Assembly (NCBI GenBank): GCA_041648395.1
Contig: JBAZPC010000001.1
Span: 31,173 to 95,172 of the forward strand
DNA: 64,000 bases
Source: Minisyncoccota bacterium
GTDB taxonomy: Bacteria; Patescibacteriota; Minisyncoccia; UBA9983
Reading direction: 5' to 3'
The translations under genes and the position numbers were made by a program. Position 1 is the stretch's first letter, and each line of letters starts with the position of its first letter. The notes beneath the pieces were generated by a model that did no database searches, was not told the origin of the DNA, and saw nothing but the letters and a program-made list of their open reading frames with translations. Below, in pieces: positions 1-28,648 of this stretch.

Positions 1-1
1 T

Positions 2-889
2 GGTAAACATGTAATTATTTCTAAAATAGAACATCTTTCTGTGTCTTCAAGTGCTGAATTTCTCACCAAGCATGGATTTGAATTAACAAAAATATCAGTA
101 GATAAAAAATGTAATTTAAATCTTAAAGAACTAGAATCATCAATAAAAGACGACACTATATTGATCTCAGTGATGTTGGTTAATAATGAAATAGGCACAA
201 TTCAACCAATTTCAGAAATTAGTAAAATAATAAAAAAGAAAAACAAAGAGAGATTATTAAAAGGCGGATCGCCTATATATTTTCATATTGATGCGGAGGC
301 GGGAACGTTTTACTTAGATTGTAATGTAAAAAAATTAGAAATTGATTCATTGAGCATAAACGGGTCAAAAATGTATAGTCTAAAGGGATGTTCCGCTCTT
401 TTTATTAAAAAAGGAACACCTCTTGCAACGCAAATTCATGGTGGAGGCCAAGAAAGATATTTAAGAGGTGGCACAGAAAATATACCTGCCATAGTGGCTT
501 TAGGGGAGGCGGTTTCTTTGGCTGCTAAGGAAAGGACAAAAAATGTAAAGTATATAAATTATTTAAAAGAGAGGTTAATAAGAAAAATTTTAAAAGAGAT
601 ACCCAGTAGCCGGTTAAACACTCCATTAAACAGTATATCTAATATTGCCCATTTTACTTTTTTAAAAAATAAAAAAGATCTAGTAATAGGATTAAGTAAG
701 AAGGGGATAGCAATATCCAGGGGTTCCGCGTGTTCCGCTAAATCATTTTCTGTATCAGCAACTCTCGCAGACATGGGATTTTCAAAAGATGAAGCATTTT
801 CTAGCCTCCGATTTTCTTTGGGAAAATATAATACTGTGAGTGATATAGATACTGCAATAAAAAATTTGAAATCAATTATTAAAAAATAA
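2..889 (+). CDS. Cysteine desulfurase (NifS/IscS class V aminotransferase), C-terminal part; the 5' end lies outside the window
   Basis: The frame is open from base 2 (GKHVIISKIEHLSVSSS...). The translation has typical IscS C-terminal motifs (TENIPAIVALGEA, SRGSACSA) and ends with TAA at 887-889. Confidence 0.8.
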   Translation, partial: GKHVIISKIEHLSVSSSAEFLTKHGFELTKISVDKKCNLNLKELESSIKDDTILISVMLVNNEIGTIQPISEISKIIKKKNKERLLKGGSPIYFHIDAEAGTFYLDCNVKKLEIDSLSINGSKMYSLKGCSALFIKKGTPLATQIHGGGQERYLRGGTENIPAIVALGEAVSLAAKERTKNVKYINYLKERLIRKILKEIPSSRLNTPLNSISNIAHFTFLKNKKDLVIGLSKKGIAISRGSACSAKSFSVSATLADMGFSKDEAFSSLRFSLGKYNTVSDIDTAIKNLKSIIKK

Positions 890-891
890 AT

Positions 892-2583
892 ATGCCAGCA
901 ATTATTAAAATATTTGTATTAGGAACTATATTAGCTGGTTTTTCTAATCTTTTTTTTGGGTTGATAATATATTTTAAAAATAAAAAAGAAAAACAAAACA
1001 TTATTTTTCTTTTATTGGAGCTTTCTATAGTTTTATGGCTTTTTTCTTATGCAATATGGTTAGCCAAAGACAATGAAGTAAGCGCTCTTTTTTGGTCGCG
1101 TATGCTCAATTTAGGCGCCACCCTAATTCCCGTTCTGTTCTTACATTGGGTTGTTGCTTTTTTGGGGTTAGTGCGAAAAAAATTTTTAATATTCGCCTAT
1201 ATTTCAACAATAATTTTTTCTTTTTTTAGTTTCTCTTCTTTTTATATACAAAAAGTAAAGGAAGTGTCAATTTTTTCTTATTGGCCTCAAGCTGGGTGGT
1301 TGTATTCTATATTTTTAGCAACTTTTGTAATTTATTTTGGTTATGGTTTTATACTTTTATACGGATTTATTAAAGATAAATCTAATAATAAGGAAAGAAT
1401 TCTTCAGATAAAGTATATTTTTTTAGGGTCTATAATTAGTGCCATTGGCGGAATTTTTAATTTTCCCTTAATGTACGGGGTTCCGCTTATGCCTTTAACA
1501 TTGACAACTATTTTTCATCCTATCTTTTGGGCTTATGGAATTTTAAAACATAATTTATTCAACATAAAAGTAGTTGCTACGGAATTTTTAGTAATATTCT
1601 TGTTGGTTATCTTCCTTGTAAATATATTTTTCTACACAAGTATTTTTGAATTAAGTTTTAAAATATTTATTTTTATTGCATCTACTTTTCTTGGTATTTT
1701 TATTATCCGCTCCGTTCTCAAGGAGGTTAAAACCCGCGAGGAGATGGAGGGGCTGGCATGGAAGTTGGAACAGGCGAATATCAAATTGCAGGAGTTGGAT
1801 AAAGCCAAGTCGGATTTTGTGACTATCGCTTCACACCAATTAAGGACGCCCATCACCGCCATCAAGGGCTACGCCTCCATGGTTCTGGAGGGCTCGTTCG
1901 GCGCGGTGCCGGAAAAAGCGAAGGTTGCCGTAAGCAAGATATTTGAATCAAGCAACCGGCTGGTGGCGCTCATCAATGATTTTCTTAATTTAAGCAGGAT
2001 AGAGAGAGGAAAGATGGAATACGCGTTTGCGAAAGTGAATTTGAAAGAAATGATTGAGACAATTTTTGACGAATTCAAGACAATTAATGTAAAAAAGAAG
2101 ACACCATTAGATTTGAGTTTAAAAATTAACGATGGCGACTTCAGCACGAGCGCCGATTCGGACAAGATACGACAGACAATTTATAATTTGATAGACAACG
2201 CCGTAAAATACACTCAAAAAGGATTCGTGAAAATTTCCCTTTATAAAGACGATGGCGAGGGCGAAATAATCATGAAAGTTGAGGACTCGGGCAAGGGAAT
2301 GTCAAAAGAAACACTAGATAACATTTTTGAGAAATTCGCCCGCGCCAAGGGCGACGGCGAAAAATACCAAGTGGAAGGCACCGGTCTCGGGCTTTACGTG
2401 GCGCGGGAGATCGCCAAGGCGCACGGCGGAGACGTTTGGGCGGAAAGCGGGGGGCTGGATAAGGGAAGCGCTTTTATTTTGAAACTGCCTATGGATTTTA
2501 TTACTCCGGAAGAGCGCAGGAAAAAAGAGGAAGAAGAAAAAGCAAAAAAAGAGAAGGTGGAACAATTTATAAAAAAGATATAG
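892..2583 (+). CDS. Sensor histidine kinase with N-terminal polytopic (7TM-type) membrane domain, HisKA and HATPase_c domains, and a K/E-rich C-terminal tail
   Basis: The N-terminus has multiple hydrophobic helices. The H-box is SHQLRTPITAIKGYASMV, the N-box is IDNAVKYT, and the G2 box is GTGLGLYVAREIAKAHGG. The ATG at 892 lies directly after the upstream stop. Confidence 0.85.
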   Translation: MPAIIKIFVLGTILAGFSNLFFGLIIYFKNKKEKQNIIFLLLELSIVLWLFSYAIWLAKDNEVSALFWSRMLNLGATLIPVLFLHWVVAFLGLVRKKFLIFAYISTIIFSFFSFSSFYIQKVKEVSIFSYWPQAGWLYSIFLATFVIYFGYGFILLYGFIKDKSNNKERILQIKYIFLGSIISAIGGIFNFPLMYGVPLMPLTLTTIFHPIFWAYGILKHNLFNIKVVATEFLVIFLLVIFLVNIFFYTSIFELSFKIFIFIASTFLGIFIIRSVLKEVKTREEMEGLAWKLEQANIKLQELDKAKSDFVTIASHQLRTPITAIKGYASMVLEGSFGAVPEKAKVAVSKIFESSNRLVALINDFLNLSRIERGKMEYAFAKVNLKEMIETIFDEFKTINVKKKTPLDLSLKINDGDFSTSADSDKIRQTIYNLIDNAVKYTQKGFVKISLYKDDGEGEIIMKVEDSGKGMSKETLDNIFEKFARAKGDGEKYQVEGTGLGLYVAREIAKAHGGDVWAESGGLDKGSAFILKLPMDFITPEERRKKEEEEKAKKEKVEQFIKKI

Positions 2584-2595
2584 AATATAAATATT

Positions 2596-3288
2596 ATGAT
2601 ATCTATAGCGCTTCATTTTATTATAGCCATAATATTTTTAGTTTCCTCGGTTGTTCTTTATATTTTATGGAAGAAACAAGGTTCTCCAAAGAATTATATT
2701 ATGGATTACTTTTTCTTTTTAAGTTTTTTTTCACTGTATCATCTTGCGCTTTCGTTGCCATATATAATTTTTGGAGAGAACTTAACATTAATGGCATGGG
2801 GATATATTTTGGCCATGATATCATTGTTATTTTTATTTCCGCGCGTCTATAAAATTACATTAAAAATTTGGGGTGTTTCAGAACAAAAAATCAAATTAGT
2901 GATATATCTGACAACACTTCTTATTCTTACGACTATAATTATATACATATATGATTTTCGCACACCTTATATCGTTAATCCGGGATTCATTATTTGGAAT
3001 GGAAATATTATAGGCAGTATAATAATTTTTTTACTAGGATTAGAAGCAGGTGTTTTCTGGGCTATAACATTTTTAAAGAATATACCAAAGGATTTAATTT
3101 TTATTTATAAATTAAAAACGTACCTTTATATTGCGGCTGCGGTATTGGTAGCTATTTCGTCTATTTATTTTGTTTCCAGAACTGTATTATTGGTAATTAT
3201 CGCTTTTGTTTCCCATGGCCTTGCCAGTGTATTTTTTGTTATACCGGTATTATTACCTAAACCATCCCAAGAAAATATAAATGAATGA
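2596..3288 (+). CDS. Polytopic membrane protein of unknown function, resembling the N-terminal 7TM sensor domain of the adjacent kinase
   Basis: A 230-aa ORF with about 7 hydrophobic segments and no recognisable catalytic motif. Confidence 0.5.
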   Translation: MISIALHFIIAIIFLVSSVVLYILWKKQGSPKNYIMDYFFFLSFFSLYHLALSLPYIIFGENLTLMAWGYILAMISLLFLFPRVYKITLKIWGVSEQKIKLVIYLTTLLILTTIIIYIYDFRTPYIVNPGFIIWNGNIIGSIIIFLLGLEAGVFWAITFLKNIPKDLIFIYKLKTYLYIAAAVLVAISSIYFVSRTVLLVIIAFVSHGLASVFFVIPVLLPKPSQENINE

Positions 3289-3415
3289 AATTATTTTAAT
3301 TGTAATACTCGCGGCGGTTGTGGTTTGGCTTTTGGCGACGCGCAAAAAAGGGGAGAAGAGCCGAAAGCGCGGGGTTAGAAAAGGGTTCGGCTTTTTACAT
3401 GAAATTGCCGGTTAA
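3281..3415 (+). pseudogene. Chimeric gene fragment: a diverged copy of the rmuC 5' end (MNEIILIVILAAVVVWLLATRKK) fused out of frame to a copy of the 3' end of a histidine-kinase gene
   Basis: The 36 nt ggttgtggtttggcttttggcgacgcgcaaaaaag are nearly identical to rmuC 8966-9003. The segment ...gaaagcgcggggttagaaaagggttcggctttttacatgaaattgccggttaaa matches 6112-6165, the HK 3' copy. It carries a TATAAA box 9 nt before the next gene. Confidence 0.5.
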
Positions 3416-3435
3416 AGAGGTATAAATTTACGTTA

Positions 3436-4377
3436 ATGAAATACGAATATAAAAAATTTAATATAAGATATACAGCCAGTTTTACTTCAAAATATAAAAA
3501 TAATGATATTAAGGTTTGGTTTGCAAGACCGACTGATTCCGAATGTCAAAAAATAGAAAAAATAAAGATTTCACCAAAACCACACTCTGATTATAATGAC
3601 AAACAAGGAAATAAAATTTTATACTTTAATTTCGAGAACCAAAAAAGTATAAAAGTACAAATGGATATTAAGGTAATCCTGTGGAAAAATAAAATAAATT
3701 TGTTAAAAGAAAAAATATCATTACCGTCGTTTTCTTCAAAAATATTTCAAAAATATACAAAAAATGAAAAGTTTCTAGAACAAACTTTGACAATAAAAAA
3801 TTTAACTAATCAAATTACTAGAAATGACCAATTTATTTTAGATAAAATCTTTTCAATAACAAAATTTTTAGAAAAAAATTTTAAATATACTTACCCTATC
3901 AAAAATAGGGGGGTTAAAAATTTAGATATTAATAATCTAAAAGGCGATTGTGGTGAAGTGGGTGCTTTATTTGTAACAATGTGCAGAATTTTAGGTATTC
4001 CAGCCCGAAACAACACTGGCTTTGTAATATATCGCGATGAATTAAACAACATATACGAACATGGATGGGGAAGTATTTATTTAAAACCTTATGGGTGGAT
4101 AGATATTGATCCGTTGGCTAATAATATATCTGAAAAAATAAATAAAGAGTATTTATATCACCAAAAAAATTATTTTCTATCTTTTACAAAAGGATTTAAT
4201 ATAAAAATTAATCCAAAAATTCCGAATAAATTTAAAATAGATTATTGGAATAATTTAGGACTACCTTTAACAAATGCATCTGTTCAGGTTTTGCAGCCGT
4301 TAGTTTTTGCATCTAAAGAAAAAGTAGTGTTTTTAGACAGCATAAAATTACTTCCCAATATAAAGAGCCCCAACTAA
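3436..4377 (+). CDS. Transglutaminase-like (Transglut_core) cysteine protease-fold protein
   Basis: Cys/His/Asp signature: GDCGEVGALFVTMCRILGIPARNNTGF ... EHGWGSIYLKPYGWIDIDP. This is the classic transglutaminase-like pattern G-x-C...R..GIPAR...H.W...D. Confidence 0.7.
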   Translation: MKYEYKKFNIRYTASFTSKYKNNDIKVWFARPTDSECQKIEKIKISPKPHSDYNDKQGNKILYFNFENQKSIKVQMDIKVILWKNKINLLKEKISLPSFSSKIFQKYTKNEKFLEQTLTIKNLTNQITRNDQFILDKIFSITKFLEKNFKYTYPIKNRGVKNLDINNLKGDCGEVGALFVTMCRILGIPARNNTGFVIYRDELNNIYEHGWGSIYLKPYGWIDIDPLANNISEKINKEYLYHQKNYFLSFTKGFNIKINPKIPNKFKIDYWNNLGLPLTNASVQVLQPLVFASKEKVVFLDSIKLLPNIKSPN

Positions 4378-4409
4378 AGTTAATTAGTTGGGGCAAAAAA
4401 GGGGATTTC

Positions 4410-4532
4410 TTACCCTTTCTTTACTCGTGCCGAAGACGAAGAACAACTTTTATGAATCGCGCCAACGACAAGATTTTTTGTGTTACCTTTTGCTTCAGCT
4501 TTTGGAGGAACATATTGTTTCTCTTTCTTCAT
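4410..4532 (-). CDS. Small 40-aa peptide, a candidate RiPP precursor: MKKEKQYVPPKAEAKGNTKNLVVGAIHKSCSSSSARVKKG
   Basis: The ORF is immediately downstream of the radical-SAM gene on the same strand. A strong Shine-Dalgarno AAGGAGGTGA (overlapping the rSAM stop) lies 8 nt before the ATG. The N-terminus is Lys-rich and leader-like, and the C-terminal segment is Cys/Ser-rich. It was not in the ORF track because it is under 60 aa. Confidence 0.45.
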   Translation of the reverse strand: MKKEKQYVPPKAEAKGNTKNLVVGAIHKSCSSSSARVKKG

Positions 4533-4540
4533 TGTTTTTT

Positions 4541-5914
4541 TCACCTCCTTTCCTTATTATTTTGAATTAAATGGTTTAAGGTTGTTATCCGACAATTTTC
4601 TGGTGACGGGCCCAAAAGATCGCTTCCTTCTAGAAAGGCCAGCCCCGGACAACGAGCACAAGAAGTAAGCAGTTGACATTTTGAACACTTTGTTAATTTA
4701 CTGATAATTAAACTGCGTAGGTATTGGAGACCAAGAGAGTTGTGCCAAATTTCTGAAAAATTATCTCCTTTTAAATCACCGACTTCATAAAGAAGTTGGT
4801 TGCAGGGCAATACTTTGCCAGAGGGAGTGATGGCGCACGAATTAAATCCGCTATAACACGGAGGAGCATTTGAGATATCAGAAAGTCCGAGATAAAATTG
4901 ATGATCCTGAAACGGTTTTCGCCCAGCGTAGAGGGCTGAAAAATCTTCATCCGCAAGAAATTCTTCTATCTGCCTATCACTCAACCGCAAGTTAAACGTA
5001 TCTTGCGATCCATCGTTGCGCGCAGTAATAATCGGGCTAGGGGAGAGTACGCAATCTAATTCTTCCGTAAGTTTTTTTACTTTATAGCGCTCATTAAAAT
5101 TTATCTGCATCATCGGAAACGCTATTTCAACCTTAACCCCTGCTTTTCTAAGATTCTTAATGCCATCTAAGCTTTTTTGAAATGACCCCGAAAGGCGTGT
5201 AATAGAATCGTGGATTTCGGTGGTTGCCCCATAAAGGCTTACTTGCACCCTTCTTACAGAATACTTTGCTAGCGTGGTTGCTGTTTCTTCACTTATTAGT
5301 GTGCCATTACTTAGTATGTCGATAACAAAATGGAGACTGCTGGCATATTTTACGATATCAATCGCATCTTTGCGTATAAAGAATTCTCCACCAGTAAGCG
5401 ACAAAAAGAGACACCTTTCTTTAGCTAATTCGCCTAAAATCCTTTTGATCTCAGATAGTCTTAAGGAAGGCAAGTTTCTTTCCATATAGCAATGTATACA
5501 TTTTTCATTGCAGGTGTAAGTAGTTTCGAATGTAGCTGCAAAAGGAATAAGATGTTTAATCGCTTCCATTTCTATAGCCAATAACACGTTTTCTCCTTCT
5601 GTTTCTGTGCCTAGGGCATTATTATGCTTGTCAACTTGAAGATGCCGATTATCAAGTTTTAAAAATCCCATTTGCACTGCTTCCTGAAGAAAGGTGTCAA
5701 CATCTTTTTTTGCAATTTTTACACTGAGATCATATTCGGTTGATAGCCATTTAATAACCTGATCATACTTTTGTCCGGATACTAGCTTTTGCCAGATAAT
5801 TGATGCAGCTTCGTTCCAAATAACGATTTTTTGATTTTTGCAGTTAAAAGCAACAACGTTGTCGTTAATGAGTCGCCAGCCAATTCTTGAATTTATCTCA
5901 ATTATTTCCATCAT
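4541..5914 (-). CDS. Radical SAM/SPASM-domain enzyme with an N-terminal PqqD-like RiPP recognition element (RRE), likely a peptide-modifying maturase
   Basis: The N-terminal ~90 aa fit the PqqD/RRE pattern (NEAASIIWQKL...DVDTFLQEAVQMGFL). The radical SAM motif is CNEKCIHC (CX3CX2C). The C-terminus has a Cys-rich SPASM/twitch region (CYSGFNSCAITPSGKVLPCNQ...CSKCQLLTSCARCPG). An AGGAGG sits before the ATG. Confidence 0.85.
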   Translation of the reverse strand: MMEIIEINSRIGWRLINDNVVAFNCKNQKIVIWNEAASIIWQKLVSGQKYDQVIKWLSTEYDLSVKIAKKDVDTFLQEAVQMGFLKLDNRHLQVDKHNNALGTETEGENVLLAIEMEAIKHLIPFAATFETTYTCNEKCIHCYMERNLPSLRLSEIKRILGELAKERCLFLSLTGGEFFIRKDAIDIVKYASSLHFVIDILSNGTLISEETATTLAKYSVRRVQVSLYGATTEIHDSITRLSGSFQKSLDGIKNLRKAGVKVEIAFPMMQINFNERYKVKKLTEELDCVLSPSPIITARNDGSQDTFNLRLSDRQIEEFLADEDFSALYAGRKPFQDHQFYLGLSDISNAPPCYSGFNSCAITPSGKVLPCNQLLYEVGDLKGDNFSEIWHNSLGLQYLRSLIISKLTKCSKCQLLTSCARCPGLAFLEGSDLLGPSPENCRITTLNHLIQNNKERR

Positions 5915-6021
5915 TTTTTCCTCCTTTCTGTTTATTTTTTAAAGACCTGTGGTCTTGTTTTCTGCTTTTAACCCTATACTTTTAATAGCTTTTGTCAATT
6001 TAAAAATGTATAATAATTAAA

Positions 6022-6180
6022 ATGGACACGGCGCAGATAGTGGAAGGCACCGGCCTCGGGCTTTACGTGGCGCGCGAGATTGCCAAGGCGCACGGCGGTA
6101 ATGTTTGGGCGGAAAGCGGGGGGCTGGACAAGGGCTCGGCTTTCTACATGAAATTGCCGGTTAAAAATGTTATATCATAA
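6022..6180 (+). pseudogene. Chimeric 52-codon ORF: the first six codons of rmuC (MDTAQI) fused in frame to a ~140-nt copy of a histidine-kinase HATPase C-terminus (…VEGTGLGLYVAREIAKAHGGNVWAESGGLDKGSAFYMKLPVKNVIS)
   Basis: Bases 6004-6039 are identical to 8917-8952, which is the rmuC promoter plus start. Bases 6040-6150 are about 90% identical to HK 2374-2484. Its stop overlaps the ATG of the next gene (TAATG). Confidence 0.45.
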
Positions 6181-6896
6181 TGAAATCTAAAAAAGATAAT
6201 AAATCAAATATAGAACGTAAAATTATTCCTATTGGCGGTGGATTACTGCGTTTGGACGAAACAATTACCATAGATAAATTTATTGTCAAAGAAAGCGGCA
6301 AAAAAAATCCGAAAGTTTTATTTATACCCACCGCAAGCAAAGATTTACTGGCATACTCCAACGTCTTTCGCCGTGTGTACGAAAAATTAGGGTGCCAAGT
6401 AAAAATCTTGCGTTTATTTAATAAAAGAAAATTTTCTCAAACAACATTAGAAAAACTCATCACAAGTGCCGACATTATTTATGTCGGTGGCGGTGATTAT
6501 GATATTCTGCTTTCGATGTGGAGGAAACACAAAATTATTTCTCTCATACGGTTAGCATACCAACAAGGAACCATTCTCACCGGGTTAAGCGCGGGATGTG
6601 CCGTCTGGTATGAATATCTCATAGATAGCGATAAGGATAAAAAAACTCGCCTCAAAAAAGGGCTCGGCATACTTGAAGGTGTCGTAATTCCTCACTATAG
6701 AACCGAGGATCCACTTTCTCTCGAGATTCGCAAGACAAAAATCATCGTTACTGGCATTGAAGACAAATGTGCCGTGATATACACTAACGAGCACCTAAGA
6801 GGTTCTATACCAGCAAGTAAAGAAAAGGCCTTTACAATTCGCCCTCCTTATGTTAAAAAGAAGCAGGTAACTTTGTACTTTCACAAATCTCATTAA
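6180..6896 (+). CDS. Peptidase S51 family (peptidase E / cyanophycinase-like serine peptidase)
   Basis: IIYVGGGDYDILL...GTILTGLSAGCAV (the Ser nucleophile in SAG) and the downstream VIPHY histidine align with E. coli peptidase E (IIIVGGGNTFQLL...YIGWSAGANLA...NPHF). Confidence 0.75.
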   Translation: MKSKKDNKSNIERKIIPIGGGLLRLDETITIDKFIVKESGKKNPKVLFIPTASKDLLAYSNVFRRVYEKLGCQVKILRLFNKRKFSQTTLEKLITSADIIYVGGGDYDILLSMWRKHKIISLIRLAYQQGTILTGLSAGCAVWYEYLIDSDKDKKTRLKKGLGILEGVVIPHYRTEDPLSLEIRKTKIIVTGIEDKCAVIYTNEHLRGSIPASKEKAFTIRPPYVKKKQVTLYFHKSH

Positions 6897-6915
6897 ACTA
6901 AAAAGGAGGTGGCAG

Positions 6916-7986
6916 ATGATCTCGAAAATTCCACGCCCCCTCCAGTATGGAGATGGGGTAGCTTTGGTCAATCCGGCTGGCGTACTTCCGGAGCGGTTCA
7001 AAAACCAATACAGATATGTCAAGGCTCATCTTGAGGAACTTGGATTTACTGTCAGAGACTTCGTAATTGAAAGTGGTTGGGAGGACGCGCGAAGGCGTAG
7101 TGAAACATTGCAGGCGGCGTTTACCGACCCGCAAGTGAAAGCGATACTGCCTCTCTGTGGTGGCGCGAGAATCTACGACATTCTTCCGCTGATTGATTAC
7201 GATGTGTTAGCCAGTCATCCGAAGATTATTTGCGGTTCGAGCGAGCTTTCGGCTCTTGTGGTAACAATCGCTGAGCGGGCGGGTATGGTAACGTTCTTTG
7301 GTCCGCATCTCAACTTTCTTAACCCCAAGGCGTCAAAACTTGAGAACAGATTCACGGTGAGGAGCTTTTGGAATATGCTCCAGTGGGACTGGCACGGAAG
7401 AAACGGCCTAAGTAAAAACGAGGCGCATCACTTCTTTGTTGCTCCTCGAAAGCCAACTCTTCCGGTGGTAATTCATAACATTTACCGTGATCCGACACGT
7501 ATTACAAATAATCGCTACAGAGACAACTTCTACTACACTCCTATCTCGGATCAGAATGTAACCGGACAGCTCTTGATTGGGTCACTTGCGGTGCTAATAC
7601 GTCTTTGTGAGGAGGGATTGAACCCTGACATAACGGATAAGATTGTCATGCTTGATTCGTTGGATATGTCTCTTGGGACGGTTGCCGAATTACTCCAGCG
7701 TTTCAATGCTCACTGCGATCTTTCCCATGCCACGGCAGTCGTCTTTTCCTCGCTCGCCGAGAGAACGGATCGAGAGAATCTTTTGTATCCGGAATTACGA
7801 GACATGGATCGGGTGAAGGGATTCCTTCAGGAAGTTTCTGAATTGCTCGGAGGAAAACTGCCTCTCTTTTATGGTTTTCCTGTCGGACACTGTGCGTACA
7901 AGCTCACTTTGCCGATTGGGATTACCGCCTCCATCGTTGTTGAAACCGGCGACTTGCTACTCGTGGAGTCTCCGTACCAACAATAA
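6916..7986 (+). CDS. Peptidase S66 family (LD-carboxypeptidase LdcA / microcin C7 immunity MccF-like)
   Basis: ILPLCGGARIYDILPLIDYDVLASHPKIICGSSELSALVV...VTFFGPHL aligns with LdcA (LAVRGGYGASRLLADIDWQAL...LLICGHSDFTAIQ...ITFSGPML). The C-terminal GFPVGH provides the catalytic His. A GGAGGTGG SD sits before the ATG. Confidence 0.75.
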   Translation: MISKIPRPLQYGDGVALVNPAGVLPERFKNQYRYVKAHLEELGFTVRDFVIESGWEDARRRSETLQAAFTDPQVKAILPLCGGARIYDILPLIDYDVLASHPKIICGSSELSALVVTIAERAGMVTFFGPHLNFLNPKASKLENRFTVRSFWNMLQWDWHGRNGLSKNEAHHFFVAPRKPTLPVVIHNIYRDPTRITNNRYRDNFYYTPISDQNVTGQLLIGSLAVLIRLCEEGLNPDITDKIVMLDSLDMSLGTVAELLQRFNAHCDLSHATAVVFSSLAERTDRENLLYPELRDMDRVKGFLQEVSELLGGKLPLFYGFPVGHCAYKLTLPIGITASIVVETGDLLLVESPYQQ

Positions 7987-8018
7987 AGGCTGAATAGAAC
8001 AAGTTCTATTCAGCCTTT

Positions 8019-8795
8019 TTACTTCTCTGCAAGGAGTTTGTTGATGAGCTGAGCGTCTTTGTCCGCTATACCGTATTCGGAATTTAACACCGTGGCTTGA
8101 AGACGTTCCCGAAGTTCGACATCGTGACTCAACTGATCAGCAAACGTTACAAGTGCCTCCCTCGTTTCCTTCTTGTAGTTCTGGAGTTTGGTGTACACCA
8201 CGTTCCGAAAGAATATAACAAGATCAAGGTCAGAGGCGTTGAGGGAGTCAAACTTTGCTCGGTCAAGCTCGTAAGCGAGTTCGCGACGCATAGTAAACAT
8301 AAGTTCAAGATATGCCGATGAAGCTTCTTGAACCCGCCGTCCTCTTACCAACTCAACGAAACTTGATATTGCGGTACCTATCATGTCGCCCGAGAAGATT
8401 TTACAGCCGAACGATACGGTAACATTCTCGTCCGCGAGGTGAGTATTCTCCTTGATGAAGTTATTTACTTCATCTCCCAACATTAAGAAAAACTTGTTCA
8501 CGACCGATTGGTCAGTTGCTACTCCGATAGCAAAGATTTCTTCTCCCGAAGGAATCATGCAAAAGGATGGAATCGCTTTCGAGTGCCTCTTGATAAATCC
8601 GTACATGAACGCACCAATTAGGCGATTGTAGATGTCTACAAGATTCTCCGCCAATGGACGTCCATACCGCGAGACAAAGACCCCAAGGTTATCGAGGTCT
8701 CCAGTGACCCCGAACAGAAACATATCTTGGTCGCGGTCGTAGGTTTCAACAACTTTCAAAATTTTTCTGCTCCAAATACGCTGGTGCTTTTTCAT
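8019..8795 (-). CDS. Hypothetical protein, possibly a divergent GGDEF-like palm-domain (nucleotide cyclase-like) protein
   Basis: The ORF is 258 aa with a good SD (AAAGGAGATAAGTC). The segment FGVTGDLDNLGVFVSRYGRPLAENLV loosely aligns with the GGDEF metal-binding/beta1 region (LDxDxFKxxNDxxGHxxGDxxL). SGEEIFAIGVATD loosely aligns with R-Y-GGEEF-AVLLP. The assignment is tentative. Confidence 0.4.
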   Translation of the reverse strand: MKKHQRIWSRKILKVVETYDRDQDMFLFGVTGDLDNLGVFVSRYGRPLAENLVDIYNRLIGAFMYGFIKRHSKAIPSFCMIPSGEEIFAIGVATDQSVVNKFFLMLGDEVNNFIKENTHLADENVTVSFGCKIFSGDMIGTAISSFVELVRGRRVQEASSAYLELMFTMRRELAYELDRAKFDSLNASDLDLVIFFRNVVYTKLQNYKKETREALVTFADQLSHDVELRERLQATVLNSEYGIADKDAQLINKLLAEK

Positions 8796-8899
8796 GACTT
8801 ATCTCCTTTTTATGTATTATTTAATGTGCTATTTAAAAACCATCTCTAGAGTATATTATATTTTTTATTTCGTCAAATTATTCTAAAATAGATAAAATT

Positions 8900-8934
8900 T
8901 TGAAATTGCCGGTTAAAAATGTATAATAATTAAA
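8900..8934 (+). promoter_or_regulatory. Candidate sigma70-type promoter for rmuC (TTGAAA-16 nt-TATAAT) placing the transcription start at or just before the ATG, giving a leaderless or near-leaderless mRNA; it lies within a copy of the HK 3' end
   Basis: TTGAAA is at 8900-8905, TATAAT at 8922-8927 and the ATG at 8935. There is no SD. Confidence 0.4.
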
Positions 8935-9969
8935 ATGGACACGGCGCAGATAATTATAATTGCAGTGCTTGCGACGGTTGTCGTTTGGCTTTTGGCGACG
9001 CGCAAAAAAGAGGAGGAGGGCGACGGCAACGGCGCCATTTTGATGATGCAGGAACAGCTGAAGGAAATCAGGAATACCTTGGACACGAAAATGGGGGAGT
9101 CAACAAAGGCCGTTCAACATCAATTCAGTGAGAGCGCCAAAATTATCCGCGACGTCACGGAAAAACTCACAAAGCTTGACGAAACAAACAAGCAGGTTGT
9201 CGGCTTCGCCGATCAACTTCAAAATTTGCAGGATATTTTACAGAATCCGAAGCAGAGAGGAGTGCTGGGCGAATATTATTTGGAAACCGTGCTAAAAAAT
9301 GTCCTTCCGCCGGGCAGATTCCAAATGCAATATAAATTTTCTGATGGAGAAATCGTTGACGCCGTGATCTTTTTGGATAAAGATAAAATCTTGCCCATTG
9401 ATTCAAAGTTTTCTTTGGAAAATTATAATCGCATTCTGGGCGAGAGAAACGCAACTGAGCGGGAAAATTTTGAAAAAGCGTTCAAGCAGGATCTGAAAAA
9501 CAGAATTGACGAAACCTCAAAATACATCAGACCAAAAGAGGGGACGATGGATTTCGCTTTTATGTTTATTCCCTCGGAGGCGATTTATTACGACTTGCTA
9601 ATTAACCAAGTCGGCGCGGTAAAGACCAACACGCGCGATCTCATAGAATACGCGTTCCAGCAGAAGCATGTCATTATTGTTTCCCCCACGTCGTTTATGG
9701 CATATTTGCAGACAGTTTTGCAGGGATTGCGGGCGTTGCAGATAGAGGAATCGGCGAAAGAGATAAGGAAGAGAGTTGAGGAGCTCGGCAGGCATTTGGG
9801 CAACTATGAGCAGTTTATGAAAAAGCTTGGCGTGAATTTAACAACTACCGTCAACGCTTATAACGCGTCTTATAAAGAGCTGAATAAAATAGACAAAGAT
9901 GTCTTGCGCATCACCGGCGAAGCCGTCGGCATGGAACCAATGGCGCTTGACAAACCAGAGGAGGTTTGA
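8935..9969 (+). CDS. rmuC: DNA recombination protein RmuC
   Basis: N-terminal TM helix. The conserved RmuC core is QRGVLGEYYLETVLKNVLPPGRFQMQYKF...DAVIFLDKDKILPIDSKFSLENY...AFMFIPSEAIY. Confidence 0.85.
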   Translation: MDTAQIIIIAVLATVVVWLLATRKKEEEGDGNGAILMMQEQLKEIRNTLDTKMGESTKAVQHQFSESAKIIRDVTEKLTKLDETNKQVVGFADQLQNLQDILQNPKQRGVLGEYYLETVLKNVLPPGRFQMQYKFSDGEIVDAVIFLDKDKILPIDSKFSLENYNRILGERNATERENFEKAFKQDLKNRIDETSKYIRPKEGTMDFAFMFIPSEAIYYDLLINQVGAVKTNTRDLIEYAFQQKHVIIVSPTSFMAYLQTVLQGLRALQIEESAKEIRKRVEELGRHLGNYEQFMKKLGVNLTTTVNAYNASYKELNKIDKDVLRITGEAVGMEPMALDKPEEV

Positions 9970-10026: not shown

Positions 10027-10836
10027 ATGCTTATAAGATTATTTGGAGCAATCCAAAGGTATTTTGGAGCGCTGGCGCGGTTGCAGGAAGTTTTGTTGCC
10101 TTGTATAGTAAAGGCAATGGTGCACAAAAGAGAAAAATTGACCGCGAAAGAGGAACACGTACTGGATTTTTTTGCCCACTCCTCAATAGAAATGTTGACT
10201 AAGCGCCTTACTAAAAAAAGAGTGATGATTGCATTAGTGGGACTTGTGGGGTCTGGAAAAAGTTCAGTGGCACATGAACTTGCACCTGAAATAGGCGCAG
10301 CGGTGATTGAAGGAGACGCAATCCGCGTTTTTCTTCGCAAAGAAGGAGAAAGATATGATAAAGCAAGAAGAATAGCTGAAGATGCCGGTTTATATCTTCT
10401 GGGGCGCGGCGCCAACGTAATTTTTGACTCCGACCATATTGACCCTGCCAAGCGCGCGAGCTTGAAAGCCAAAGCGAAAGAAGTCGGCGCCGAGTTGATT
10501 TTTATCCGCACATTTACCGACAGCAACGACAATCCGCAAATTCCCGGCTATAATCTTGATGAGATGATAGGAAGGAATATGATTGCACCGCCCGATAAAT
10601 TTTTTAGTAAGGCATCGACGTCGTGGGAAGGGACTGCTCAGCAAAAAGGCTCCGTTGTTAAACTGCGCGAAATGATAAGGCGAATTCTTCACCATTATCG
10701 TTGGGTCAACGAAACTGGCGGCAGATTTATCCTCAGAAAACTTCCGTTCAAAATATTCGCGGAAATAAATACCATTAACCCAAAATGGGAGAAAGAGGTT
10801 AAAAAAATGGCCGAGAAAATTATTGAAAAGTTTTAG
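10027..10836 (+). CDS. P-loop NTPase / predicted kinase (AAA_33 or zeta-toxin-like fold)
   Basis: Walker A is GLVGSGKSS. SD AAGAAGGAGG lies 6 nt before the ATG. Confidence 0.6.
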   Translation: MLIRLFGAIQRYFGALARLQEVLLPCIVKAMVHKREKLTAKEEHVLDFFAHSSIEMLTKRLTKKRVMIALVGLVGSGKSSVAHELAPEIGAAVIEGDAIRVFLRKEGERYDKARRIAEDAGLYLLGRGANVIFDSDHIDPAKRASLKAKAKEVGAELIFIRTFTDSNDNPQIPGYNLDEMIGRNMIAPPDKFFSKASTSWEGTAQQKGSVVKLREMIRRILHHYRWVNETGGRFILRKLPFKIFAEINTINPKWEKEVKKMAEKIIEKF

Positions 10837-24941: not shown

Positions 24942-25823
24942 TTATTTTGACCTCGCGTTTGACCTTGCGCAGGCCTTCATTTCCCAATCTTTTCTATTCT
25001 GCTCTTTGCTGTATCTTCTCGCCCACAAGGTTGGCAATACTGGGCCCCATGGTCTCTTGGGATGAATCATACTCACCGACCCAAAACTTATCGCTCTTGC
25101 GCCCATTGCTAATGTTTTTCCTATATCTTCATACTCCCAAATACTAGGGGCGATAATAGGAGTGGAAACGGTATCTGCTAGTTCTTTGAGAATCCGCCAA
25201 TTTATTTCCTGTGCTGTTTTACCAGACCTCGCTCCGCCTATTAGTGCAGGAACACTATTGATGCTTATTGCTTGCACTAGTCCTTCTGTTTTCTTTGCTA
25301 TTTTCATATAATGACTGTTCGCGTGTCCAACTTTAACAATAAGTGGAGTATTTACTAAAGATCTTATGGTCTCGCAATTTCTTATCGTTTCTTCCTCGCC
25401 GATTATTATGTCGTTCGGGCAAGATGCATTATATTCAAACGCAAGAATATTCGGTAAACGTGATTCTAACTCTATAAGCATCACCCTTAATTGTTCCTTT
25501 TCTTTGCCTGCTATAGATAAGATAAGATTTTTATCTTTATATATCTTTTTTTGATATTTGCTGATAAATTGCAAAAGACCCGTATTATCCAGCCCAAAAT
25601 TATTCCACCACCCATTTTTGATCGGCCTTATTTTTTTAGGCCCTTTCCGCGGATATCGCGTTATTGTTTTTGTGACTATCGCAAACAAATTGGGGTCATA
25701 CAAATTCAATAATTTTAATAAATCATAAAGAATTCTGTGCGCAATAGTCGCTCCCCTACCATCAAACCCCATCATGCCGGAAGAAAGAAAAAATTGATAA
25801 TTTTTGTCTCCTAATGTTATCAT
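24942..25823 (-). CDS. Dihydroorotate dehydrogenase-family TIM-barrel flavoprotein
   Basis: NNFGLDNTG matches the DHOD N-R-x-G-F-N-N-x-G box. EYNASCPN matches the DHOD/DHPD N-x-S-C-P-N motif. Confidence 0.6.
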   Translation of the reverse strand: MITLGDKNYQFFLSSGMMGFDGRGATIAHRILYDLLKLLNLYDPNLFAIVTKTITRYPRKGPKKIRPIKNGWWNNFGLDNTGLLQFISKYQKKIYKDKNLILSIAGKEKEQLRVMLIELESRLPNILAFEYNASCPNDIIIGEEETIRNCETIRSLVNTPLIVKVGHANSHYMKIAKKTEGLVQAISINSVPALIGGARSGKTAQEINWRILKELADTVSTPIIAPSIWEYEDIGKTLAMGARAISFGSVSMIHPKRPWGPVLPTLWARRYSKEQNRKDWEMKACARSNARSK

Positions 25824-25910
25824 GCAGCAATACCTCCCTTTTTTAAATTTTTAAACATCAAAAATCGTCTGATATCATCATATTATAAAAAGACCAAAGA
25901 GTCAAATTAA

Positions 25911-27146
25911 TTATTTCTCTTTCAATACTTCTTCAAAACGGATATGGGACGGATTTGTGGAAATTTTGCGCCACCAGAACGGTTTGAAAATTATTTCCGC
26001 TTGTTCAATAAGGGGATATTTCGCAAGAATTGACGCGTAATCGCTATTATCGGCAGAAATAAGATTATTCAACAGAGAAGTTTTGTCTATATTCCAGATA
26101 ATATGCGCCGCACCCTTAAGATTAAAAAATATTTTCCCGCTGTCACCAAAGTCGTTAATCAGCTTGAAATCAAGTTTTTCAAGATCCTCCATTCGCGCGT
26201 CGGGATTTTTTTCGCTGCTTAAATATCTTACGGTCACTTCTTTGGACAGATTGTCTTTTTTTATCAAATAACCCGTGGCTGCGCCTTTTTCTTTGAAGAT
26301 GAACTTTTTGTCTTGGGAATCAATTTTATCCCCCGTTTTTGGACCAGCTGGGTCGTCGGCAAAATCTATTTTAATCGCTCCGCCATAAAGAATATAACCC
26401 TCCGGTTTTTGCCTTACAATATTTTCTTTTAGATATTTTTCAATAATCGGTTTTAAATTATTTCTAGCACTATTCAAATCTCCTTCGGAAACCACATTCG
26501 CTTTGCCTAAAAAACCTCCTGTCATTTCCGTCTTTGACCGGCCATAAATTTTTTGGTAACTCGGCGCGCCTTTGAACCCCGGAATCGTAAAATCAACAAG
26601 CTTAATATTGTATTCCGGCCCTTGCTTATCGGCGTAAACCTTTGCTTCAATGGAGCCACTAGCTGGGACGATAATGGCCTCCTGAATTCGGTAAATTTTT
26701 CCATCCGGCGATTCAAAACGCGTTTGAACGATAAGTTTCTGTGATTTTGAAGGATAAGTATTATATATAGCAATTACCCCGCTCGCTTTTTGTCCGCCGT
26801 CCACCGAGCCGGTCGCCGTAACTTCCTGCGACTGCTCGTATTCCATCTGTATCGTCTCAAACGCCAAACCAGTTAAAGTTGCGGCGCTCTTATTTGCCTC
26901 CAAATTAAAATCAATATTTGTGAATCCCTGTTTCGGAGTTATTTTTACGGTGACCGAAGAAAAATACGATGAAAGCCATAAGAATAAAATAAAGAAAGCA
27001 ACAACGCCAATAATCCAATATAAAATTCTAATTCTACCCTTCCTACCCCGAGTGTGATTTTTTGCAGGCGCGGGCACAGGCGCCTTAACTTCCGGCGCTT
27101 TTATTATTTTCTTTTTTATAATGTCAGATAATATATATTTAGCCAC
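25911..27146 (-). CDS. Hypothetical membrane-anchored protein
   Basis: Single N-terminal TM helix. No recognisable motif. Confidence 0.5.
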   Translation of the reverse strand: MAKYILSDIIKKKIIKAPEVKAPVPAPAKNHTRGRKGRIRILYWIIGVVAFFILFLWLSSYFSSVTVKITPKQGFTNIDFNLEANKSAATLTGLAFETIQMEYEQSQEVTATGSVDGGQKASGVIAIYNTYPSKSQKLIVQTRFESPDGKIYRIQEAIIVPASGSIEAKVYADKQGPEYNIKLVDFTIPGFKGAPSYQKIYGRSKTEMTGGFLGKANVVSEGDLNSARNNLKPIIEKYLKENIVRQKPEGYILYGGAIKIDFADDPAGPKTGDKIDSQDKKFIFKEKGAATGYLIKKDNLSKEVTVRYLSSEKNPDARMEDLEKLDFKLINDFGDSGKIFFNLKGAAHIIWNIDKTSLLNNLISADNSDYASILAKYPLIEQAEIIFKPFWWRKISTNPSHIRFEEVLKEK

Positions 27147-27160
27147 AATATTATTATATC

Positions 27161-28648
27161 TTATTTTTGCCTTAATGTCGGGAATAATATTATTTCTCTG
27201 ATGTTATGCGTATCCGTTAAAAGCATTGCAAGGCGGTCTATGCCGATTCCCAGACCGGCCGCCGGCGGCATGCCGTATTCCATCGCCTCAAGATAATCCT
27301 CGTCGCTCGGAGACACCTCTTTCTCTCCCCTCTCTCGCGCCTTGTCCTGCTCTTTAAATCTCTGTTTTTGATCAAGCGGGTCGTTAAGTTCGGAAAAAGC
27401 GTTCACCGCTTCCACCCCGCCGATTATCAGCTGAAATCTGTCCAATAGGTCGGGGTTATCTGATTTTCTTTTTGCTAACGGCGACGAACCGGCCGGATAA
27501 TCAACGACAAAAGTCGGCTGGATTATTTTCGGACGGCAAAGTTTTTTGAAAATGTTGTCCGTTATTTTTTCCTTGTCCTCAAATTTTTCAACTTTGATGC
27601 CAAATTGCTGGGCCTTCAGGGCCATGTCGTCGCGCGTTTCTTTTTCCGAATTTATTATCAACGCGTATTTTTTTAAAATATCGTAATAAGAAACGATTTC
27701 AAATTTTTTGGCAAAAGATATTTTGTTGCCGTCAAATTGGAGTTCCGTTTTTCCGGTAATTTTTTTGACAATCGCCTTTAAAAATTTTTCCGTGAAATTT
27801 CTTAAATACTCAGCGTCTCTGTACGCTTCGTACATCTCAAGCATGCTGAATTCCGGATTGTGGGTAACATCAATGCCTTCGTTTCTGAAATTTCTTCCCA
27901 ACTCGTACACTTTTGAAAAACCGCCAATCAGTAATTTTTTAAGATAAAGTTCCGGCGCTATTCTCAAATACAAATCCGAATCAAGGGCGTTATGATGCGT
28001 CTTGAACGGCTCCGCCAAAGCCCCACCAGCAAGTAATTGGAGAATCGGCGTTTCCACTTCTAAAAAACCTTCTTTGTCCAAATAATTTCTAATTTCCGAA
28101 ATTATTTTTGAACGCAAGACAAATTTTTTCTTGATATCCTCGTTCGCCAGCAAATCCAAATATCTTTTCCTGAATCTTTCTTCCACATCCTGCAAGCCGT
28201 GCCATTTTTCCGGCAGAGGACGAAGTGATTTCGCCGCCATCTTCCAGCTTAAAACTTTTAATGTTTTTTCTTTTTTCTTAGTAAGAAAAAAGTTTCCTTT
28301 CAATTCCACAAAATCACCAATATCGGTTGTATCCCGAAATAAAGAAAATTGCTCGTCGCCAACCTCATCTTTTTTTATAAACGCCTGAATGGAGGACGAA
28401 CCACCTGTGGTGAGTGATGCCGAACCATCACTAATGTCAAAAAAAACCGCGCCTCCATGCCCGCGAACGGCCATAATCCGGCCGACAAGATACGATGGCT
28501 TCCTGCTTTTTACTAGCTTAGAAAAATTTTTCAGCGCCTCGGCAACAGAAAAATCCCGCTTTACCGAAGCCGGAAAAGGGTCAACGCCTTTCTCTTTTAA
28601 AATCTCCAATTTCCTAACCCGCTCGTTGCGAATGTCGTTTAAACTCAT
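27161..28648 (-). CDS. lysS: Lysyl-tRNA synthetase (class II)
   Basis: OB anticodon-binding domain. Class II motifs are FRNEGIDVTHNPEFSMLEMY and GIGIDRLAMLL. Confidence 0.9.
   Translation of the reverse strand: MSLNDIRNERVRKLEILKEKGVDPFPASVKRDFSVAEALKNFSKLVKSRKPSYLVGRIMAVRGHGGAVFFDISDGSASLTTGGSSSIQAFIKKDEVGDEQFSLFRDTTDIGDFVELKGNFFLTKKKEKTLKVLSWKMAAKSLRPLPEKWHGLQDVEERFRKRYLDLLANEDIKKKFVLRSKIISEIRNYLDKEGFLEVETPILQLLAGGALAEPFKTHHNALDSDLYLRIAPELYLKKLLIGGFSKVYELGRNFRNEGIDVTHNPEFSMLEMYEAYRDAEYLRNFTEKFLKAIVKKITGKTELQFDGNKISFAKKFEIVSYYDILKKYALIINSEKETRDDMALKAQQFGIKVEKFEDKEKITDNIFKKLCRPKIIQPTFVVDYPAGSSPLAKRKSDNPDLLDRFQLIIGGVEAVNAFSELNDPLDQKQRFKEQDKARERGEKEVSPSDEDYLEAMEYGMPPAAGLGIGIDRLAMLLTDTHNIREIILFPTLRQK

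Follow-up and report, generated by a model that had tools for sequence, protein, structure and literature searches.

How did three copies of a single gene junction come to lie in a row, with two sets of added genes between them? The question is raised by positions 892 to 9,969 of a 64-kb stretch, hereafter the window, of contig JBAZPC010000001.1 (Minisyncoccota bacterium, an uncultivated, groundwater-type member of the Patescibacteria, assembly GCA_041648395.1). There, the 3′ end of a histidine kinase (HK) gene and the promoter and 5′ end of rmuC recur as junction copies B, C and D, which delimit cassettes 1 and 2. The answer that we favour, with a probability of roughly 0.55, is that the region is a recombination scar in which three alleles of a strain-variable locus have been joined head-to-tail through two one-sided illegitimate events.

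Junction copies and their joints

Gene families were assigned with Pfam, and for some genes also with NCBIfam, and repeats were identified with a repeat finder and self-BLAST (Table 1). The three reiterated HK/rmuC junction copies described in a first-pass annotation of this DNA were recovered with all their repeat families, and repeat positions and gene calls bore out that they bound two added gene sets. The self-comparison of the locus proposed in that annotation, carried out over 12 kb, recovered every copy: positions 2370-2489 matched 6039-6158 (120 nt, 86% identity, E 9e-34) and 3290-3361 matched 8950-9021 (72 nt, 85% identity, E 1e-16). Positions 3360-3421 were 85% identical to 6109-6170, whereas identity was 100% between 6000-6039 and 8913-8952 (40 nt) and between 6149-6170 and 8901-8922 (22 nt), the latter pair flanking cassette 2. 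With up to 3 mismatches allowed, the 22-mer family, TGAAATTGCCGGTTAAA(A/G)A(T/G)GT, occurred three times in the 64 kb, at spacings of 2749 and 2752 nt, compared to 0 in 100 shuffles. Beyond the junction copies, significant dispersed repeats in the window were limited to a tandem-repeat protein gene and a few short repeats. Some pairings needed correction. The exact repeat first placed at 6004-6039 and 8917-8952 is 40 nt long rather than 36, position 6040 pairs with 2371 rather than with 2374 (a shift of 3 nt), and the pairing of 3317-3352 with rmuC 8966-9003 picked up a real match, the 72-nt one given above, approximately 11 nt out of register. The HK fragment at copy C, likened to the resident HK at about 90%, is indeed homologous to it, at 86% identity (89% to the HK of the related contig L090). 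These results show that the junction repeats are genuine, far above chance, and that they are fragments of the flanking genes, namely the HK 3′ end and the rmuC promoter and 5′ end.

Table 1. Features of the junction array, with positions in the window
Feature	Position	Strand	Basis
Resident HK	892-2583	+	Pfam HisKA_7TM, HisKA and HATPase_c
memb230, 230-aa multi-pass membrane protein	2596-3288	+	Open reading frame (ORF)
Junction B left half, displaced rmuC 5′ fragment	3290-3361	+	Repeat, self-BLAST
Junction B right half, final 66 nt of an HK allele	3360-3425	+	Repeat
Cassette 1	3426-5999	Genes on both strands	Pfam, NCBIfam, composition
Transglutaminase-like gene	3436-4377	+	Pfam/NCBIfam; 24% GC
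Peptide ORF, 40-44 aa	4410-4544	-	ORF; one Cys then a Ser run
Radical-SAM/SPASM enzyme with PqqD-like domain	4541-5914	-	Pfam/NCBIfam
Junction C left half	6000-6039	+	Repeat, self-BLAST
Junction C right half, final 131 nt of an HK allele	6040-6170	+	Repeat, ORF
Cassette 2	6171-8900	Genes on both strands	Pfam, homology to other contigs
S51 peptidase	6180-6896	+	Pfam
S66 LD-carboxypeptidase	6916-7986	+	Pfam
p258, 258 aa, GGDEF-fold	8019-8795	-	Predicted model and fold search
Junction D, HK end, rmuC promoter and 8-nt spacer	8900-8934	+	Colinear with the junction of contig L093
Intact rmuC, 344 aa	8935-9969	+	Pfam RmuC, 1.5e-59

The same arrangement was found in three assemblies. MEGAHIT contig k141_415851 (98.7 kb, ENA ERZ27249422), from a Patescibacteria/Paceibacterota metagenome-assembled genome (MAG), contains the window. 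The Logan k=31 assembly of SRR8449827 has contigs identical to window positions 1-6029 and 6010-8942, which break exactly within the 40-nt repeat yet cover every unique joint. In the NCBI/JGI MAG contig (110,246 nt), the genes from HK to the AAA-family gene after rmuC carry the consecutive accessions MFA4890049-060, a run that includes extra entries at both fusion ORFs. Related strains were clearly present in the sample, and the break of the Logan contigs at the 40-nt repeat would fit strain variants of a hypervariable locus that an assembler had chained. However, the longest exact repeat (40 nt) is far below the final MEGAHIT k of 141, the joints at B and C are unique and offer no shared k-mer for chaining, single Logan contigs run across them (L003 across B and L005 across 6039/6040), and the gene order recurs in the third assembly. 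An assembly artefact is hardly credible.

At B and C, an rmuC fragment is followed by an HK fragment, that is, the native HK-to-rmuC junction is permuted. At B, rmuC is joined at about codon 26 to HK at 66 nt before its stop with an overlap of 2 nt (3360-3361), and at C it is joined at codon 6 to HK at 131 nt before its end with an overlap of 1 nt (6039), so that the breakpoints lie at different positions in both genes. The rmuC fragment of B comprises about codons 3-26 in an ORF starting at 3281 and still encodes the N-terminal transmembrane helix; the HK fragment beside it (AESAGLEKGSAFYMKLPVKEV*) is out of frame. In the left half of C, the 10 terminal nt of an HK gene precede the rmuC -10 box and rmuC codons 1-6; the HK fragment of C (VEGTGLGLYVAREIAKAHGGNVWAESGGLDKGSAFYMKLPVKNV) is in frame with these codons, giving a 52-aa ORF at 6022-6180. 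The C-terminus of this ORF differs from that of the resident kinase, as first described, but its ending is ...KLPVKNVIS*; the ...KNV* ending is that of copy D and of the empty site in relatives. Copy D comprises the 26 terminal nt of an HK gene (...MKLPVKNV*) and 8 nt ahead of the rmuC ATG. The duplicated stretches measure 14, 22, 40 and 72 nt; the duplicated HK end at cassette 1 is imperfect and approximately 14 nt long, compared to 22 nt at cassette 2.

Every copy had been described as carrying a -10 box immediately before the first gene of a gene set. A good promoter was found at copy D only, where the best match of the region (TTGAAA-16-TATAAT, 8900-8927, 11/12) lies and where the last 26 nt of HK double as the rmuC promoter. 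The TATAAT of copy C (6009-6014) stands upstream of the fusion ORF and not directly before the S51 gene. The exact 22-nt duplication around cassette 2 equals the rmuC promoter, and insertions that keep it would be expected to keep rmuC expressed.

No integrase, transposase or resolvase was detected among the array genes, the remaining ORFs of 110 aa or more in the 64-kb window, or the genes called in the 9 kb upstream, in line with the first-pass annotation, and the same set gave no match to intI or Phage_integrase. On both strands, the boundary regions showed no attC-like hairpins, folding no better than shuffles (z -1.8 to +1.4). The repeat finder detected no inverted repeats at the cassette ends, and there were no strong palindromes at the cassette boundaries, the only strong one being the terminator at 7985-8018 between convergent genes inside cassette 2. 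An integron was rejected for the lack of intI and of hairpins in these regions, and the lack of a transposase and of terminal inverted repeats there, together with the varying length of the duplications, speaks against a transposon or insertion sequence.

The positions of the joints also bear on site-specific tandem accretion, in which cassettes lacking an integrase would be mobilised in trans, like cis-mobilizable elements (CIMEs) or integrative and mobilizable elements (IMEs), into an attachment (att) site within the 3′ end of HK; attL, attI and attR would correspond to the recurring HK ends. The 22-mer does occur three times with the two exact copies flanking cassette 2, copies of cassette 2 occur in several contexts elsewhere, and a resolvase fragment lies near one of these contexts (L187). 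Against this account, conservative recombination at one core cannot make rmuC/HK joints at two positions, nor can it bring a piece of the rmuC 5′ end to lie before a piece of the HK 3′ end; the differing positions and permuted order at B and C do not agree with a single fixed crossover core at every junction. Moreover, the duplicated HK end differs between the cassettes, copies of cassette 2 elsewhere lack the 22-mer at their ends, and the search for recombinases was negative in the array, the 64-kb window and the 9 kb upstream. Together with overlaps of only 1-2 nt and with repeats that are pieces of flanking genes and not recombination sites, these features led us to set aside the site-specific, integron or tandem-island array first proposed, and site-specific accretion is improbable.

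Alleles of the HK-rmuC boundary

The empty HK-rmuC junction that the first-pass annotation had suggested looking for in relatives was present in contigs L093 and L094. In L093 (RmuC 93% identical in amino acids), the junction is uninterrupted (...GSAFYIKLPVKNV*, 8 nt and the rmuC ATG); its HK gene ends in ...AAATTGCCGGTTAAAAATGTATAA and the protein in ...KLPVKNV*, and a 24-mer of HK end and rmuC promoter (AAATTGCCGGTTAAARANGTATAA) is common to L093 and the window. In L090 (RmuC 96%), a long-tailed HK gene, a gene for a 223-aa membrane protein and rmuC follow each other, matching window positions 892-3361. The 223-aa protein is 26% identical to memb230 over the full length; memb230 itself had no match in Pfam or NCBIfam. 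Thus, the boundary is filled with nothing or with a membrane-protein gene among strains, and the earlier suggestion of serial insertion at a hotspot holds in that the boundary is strain-variable, being empty in L093 and L094 and holding only the membrane-protein gene in L090. Reiterated junctions were not found in other relatives, and an empty 171-nt tandem duplication of the junction was not found in L090, L093 or L094.

The resident HK has a long C-terminal tail (...KLPMDFITPEE...KKI*, the M-type end), which is common to L090 and to the outgroup L188. Because L188 has the long tail too, the short ...KNV* end more probably arose by deletion, and the membrane-protein gene as a third inserted cassette is unsupported. 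In a more distant relative, at L102:311-550, an orphan 79-aa HK C-terminal remnant was observed after a terminator, 9.4 kb upstream of rmuC, and HK is truncated there.

Synteny with relatives is seen on either side of the array. On the left, the order from shikimate dehydrogenase to HK is common to L188/L189; on the right, the block downstream of rmuC (L21-RecR-DnaB-CysRS-CorA-TGT) is common to many relatives, and the order rmuC-L21-RecR-DnaB is shared across 80 GTDB species representatives. In none of these 80 was HK found within 10 kb upstream of rmuC. In more distant relatives (L188/L189, L107, L100, L110 and L091), the interval between HK and rmuC contains an aminoacyl-tRNA synthetase gene and other housekeeping genes, including CTP synthase in L100, L107, L110 and L188. 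The housekeeping content and the count of 0/80 ruled out a clade-wide cassette hotspot between HK and rmuC. The genes for dihydroorotate dehydrogenase and aspartyl-tRNA synthetase, which lie directly upstream of rmuC in L091 and L188, were seen here at 24942-28648 on the minus strand, inverted and 16-19 kb downstream. Because of this inversion, the adjacency of HK and rmuC appears to be a rearrangement breakpoint in synteny, derived in this sub-lineage.

The fragments at the joints carry the mark of different functional alleles. When the HK stubs were compared with each other, with the resident HK and with the L090 HK, differences fell at third positions in 10/17, 7/10, 10/13 and 4/4 cases, and the differences among stubs and full HK genes were mostly synonymous. 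Over 16 residues, the HK stub of B matches the L090 HK completely in protein sequence, all 4 nucleotide differences being synonymous. The rmuC stub of B starts with MNEIILIVIL, resembling the natural rmuC alleles P0007, P0011 and P0013, and its transmembrane-helix sequence is intact. Because the differences are mainly third-position and mostly synonymous, the stubs appear, on codon-level evidence, to have diverged inside working genes of different strains and not by decay in place. Copies C and D share 52 identical nt, compared to approximately 85% identity for the other copies, which points to a recent second event. An RmuC homologue on a 3646-nt JGI contig (P0006) was also observed to have an N-terminus (MDTVQIIIIAVLAAVVVWLLATRKK) near that of the window RmuC and strongly divergent last ~70 residues, which suggests that rmuC itself may be mosaic in the population.

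The synonymous bias is not what would be expected of non-coding remnants, and it therefore weighs against a history in which the HK-rmuC junction was first duplicated in tandem in place and the copies then diverged and received separate insertions. The order rmuC/HK is the classic joint of a tandem duplication, and the 52 identical nt of C and D would fit it as well. However, the three units share nothing except gene stubs, the HK stub of B encodes exactly the residues of the L090 HK, and more steps would be required than for a concatenation of alleles. Such a duplication is very unlikely.

The cassettes and a model of their addition

Other contigs carry cassette 2, with 81-88% nucleotide identity, in unrelated settings that lack HK and rmuC at its sides, among them beside a CCA-adding enzyme gene and beside a PqqD/radical-SAM set, and its S51, S66 and p258 genes stood together in every context examined. 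Homology extends over window positions 6172-8882 in L174/L175 and stops at 8883 in L091; in L179 it starts at 6168 and runs to the contig end at 8795. These limits are essentially those of cassette 2 in the array. In a set of 5.8 billion proteins, the S66 family comprised 71 clusters and the p258 family 58, the named ones among the latter all being of Patescibacteria type. Judged from these homology limits and counts, cassette 2 appears to be a discrete, rare and portable three-gene module.

The p258 protein had no match in Pfam, NCBIfam or PDB sequence searches. Its AlphaFold model (pLDDT 94.6) predicts a GGDEF/palm-type nucleotide cyclase domain and a helical C-terminal domain, the top PDB fold matches being GGDEF diguanylate-cyclase and Cas10 palm domains, and the motif SGEEIF was read in this model as the probable counterpart of GGDEF. 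The predicted GGDEF-type fold ruled out p258 as a hidden recombinase.

The gene set of cassette 1 looks like one for a ribosomally synthesized and post-translationally modified peptide (RiPP), and its first gene has 24% GC compared to 42% for the genome. A second radical-SAM/SPASM gene with a 43-aa ORF was observed approximately 6 kb upstream of the window (L002:3921-5357).

Recombination between HK/rmuC junction copies, the other mechanism offered in the first-pass annotation, was retained as the best explanation, in the form of concatenated alleles. Each added unit has a non-homologous joint on its left (overlaps of 2 and 1 nt) and a colinear rmuC promoter and gene on its right. Allele 1 would be HK-membrane protein-rmuC, cut at rmuC codon ~26; allele 2 would start 66 nt before the HK end and continue through cassette 1 and the rmuC promoter to rmuC codon 6; and allele 3 would start 131 nt before the HK end and continue through cassette 2 and the rmuC promoter to the end of rmuC. 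Cassettes 1 and 2 would then be further fillings of the boundary in other strains. In a first step, a recipient with the HK-membrane protein-rmuC arrangement would take up (HK end)-cassette 1-rmuC DNA from another strain, the right end joining by homology in rmuC or beyond and the left end illegitimately at codon ~26 of the recipient rmuC. In a later, second step, (HK end)-cassette 2-rmuC DNA would enter likewise, its left end joining at rmuC codon 6. The donor in each case would be a co-occurring strain with a different allele, pairing by homology in rmuC and downstream. Because the other end would join without homology inside the recipient rmuC 5′ end, the incoming allele would be added rather than exchanged, leaving the old rmuC stub beside the incoming HK stub. 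Such events would need no dedicated recombinase and would amount to two rounds of homology-facilitated illegitimate recombination (HFIR). Competence genes are reported to be prevalent in Patescibacteria (PMC12455944; for the phylum, see also PMC10633639).

Several points weigh against this model. Classical HFIR events usually delete recipient DNA and do not duplicate it. The exact 22-nt direct repeat that flanks cassette 2 looks superficially like an att-site duplication. Neither HK-cassette 1-rmuC nor HK-cassette 2-rmuC turned up on a donor contig among the matches listed, in a metagenome scan that also missed L093, and the closest copies of cassette 2 that were found lie in other contexts. 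Finally, the same end product would result from a left-anchored version of the events or from integration of circularised fragments. In the latter case, allelic fragments of ~2.9 kb (from the HK 3′ end through cassette 2 to the rmuC promoter and rmuC codon 6), and in the earlier event of ~2.75 kb, would be closed by end joining and integrate in Campbell fashion by a single crossover in a short shared stretch. This would yield exactly the observed product, the exact 40-nt and the 72-nt (85%) duplication each being bounded by the circle joint on one side and the point of allele divergence on the other, and the Logan k=31 graph also fits a 2913-nt circle. However, each event would require two rare steps, a non-homologous circularisation and a crossover in only 40 nt, and cassette 2 is chromosomal in the 110-kb NCBI contig as well as in the MEGAHIT k=141 contig. 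We regard circle integration as unlikely.

Similar footprints were observed at other sites. At L095:1502-4536 (VAOY01001513.1, Patescibacteria), a 120-nt direct repeat (92.5% identity), made up of an ABC-transporter promoter and the ~25 codons that open the gene, flanks a 2.9-kb cassette that encodes proteins of 397 aa (ATPase-like by eye), 178 aa and 159 aa; by its structure, this is another insertion of the flank-duplicating kind, at a site unrelated to the array. Short direct repeats that are gene ends or promoter plus ATG also flank inserts of 0.7-2.6 kb at L030:15212-17871, L048:9092-9813, L102:18137-19514 and L144:15380-17037. The units of the array (2749 and 2913 nt) and the L095 insert (2915 nt) are close in size. 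A survey of 2.3 Mb of related loci found repeat-flanked inserts of 0.3-7 kb, in 37 repeat pairs with no preferred spacing; the lack of a size peak ruled out a size-constrained vehicle, and the match in size was treated as coincidence.

Other variable features were seen around the array. The stretch from rmuC to the L21 gene holds an AAA_33-family kinase-like gene (10027-10836); L21 follows rmuC directly in L091 and L093, which lack a gene of this type, and L090 has a different 108-aa ORF there, making this a second small variable interval. The GC content is 28-37% in the 10 kb upstream of the array (L002:1-10000 and window positions 1-1700) and ~42% in the 55 kb downstream, a step that coincides with the array and that is accounted for in part by membrane-protein coding. 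Further downstream, diverged ~132-nt tandem repeats at 42010-42650 lie inside a gene for a 1701-aa protein with fibronectin-III and purple-acid-phosphatase-N domains.

Comparison with known systems

The array resembles an integron cassette array in the promoter-proximal stacking of unrelated gene sets at one site. It differs in having no intI, attI or attC hairpins, in repeats that are fragments of coding sequence, and in cassettes that are multi-gene, lie on both strands and have their own promoters. In arrays of integrative and conjugative elements (ICEs) and CIMEs and in tRNA-gene islands, the repeats are att cores that a tyrosine or serine recombinase always cuts at the same position. Tandem accretion of ICEs and CIMEs likewise repeats the 3′ end of a target gene between inserts, with some units lacking an integrase. 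In contrast, the joints here differ in position, their order is permuted and no recombinase was found.

A closer likeness is to the orphan arrays of type VI secretion system (T6SS), Rhs and contact-dependent inhibition (CDI) loci, formed by 'sequential displacement'. They too have a conserved anchor gene with serial alternative modules and stubs of earlier gene ends in a row, and look like integrons without an integrase. Unlike those arrays, this one has a cargo other than toxin-immunity pairs, keeps stubs of the genes on either side (HK 3′ and rmuC 5′), and has older modules that are apparently whole and not partly displaced. The same logic as that of HFIR has been proposed for V. cholerae T6SS effector-immunity arrays and orphan Rhs arrays (Kirchberger et al. 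2017, PMC5361080), and HFIR is known in the naturally transformable Acinetobacter baylyi, Streptococcus pneumoniae and Pseudomonas stutzeri from work cited in PMC5361080 and PMC3240628. As in HFIR, one end of the incoming DNA would be anchored by homology and the other joined at a few bases of microhomology, and foreign genes are added beside a conserved gene without a dedicated recombinase. Unlike in those species, the process is read here from a natural footprint in an uncultivated Patescibacterium, recipient sequence is duplicated (26 and 6 rmuC codons) and not deleted, and two events are stacked.

Given the similar footprints at other Patescibacteria loci (L095, L030, L048 and L102), there is a modest though small chance that recombinase-free, flank-duplicating capture of small modules, in which incoming modules would bring or recreate the promoter and gene end of the neighbour, is a routine means of gene gain in this group. 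If it were, arrays of this kind would record serial events, and rates and donor-recipient distances could be read from uncultivated populations. The locus also flags two portable modules, the RiPP-like radical-SAM set and the trio of S51 peptidase, S66 LD-carboxypeptidase and GGDEF-fold protein. The array is a well-preserved case of a known process, hotspot accretion by illegitimate recombination, in an unusual organism, and not a new type of system. Both parental gene stubs are kept at each joint, and the events can therefore be reconstructed base by base, which makes this an unusually legible natural record of an ultra-small uncultivated bacterium adding genes without mobile-element machinery.

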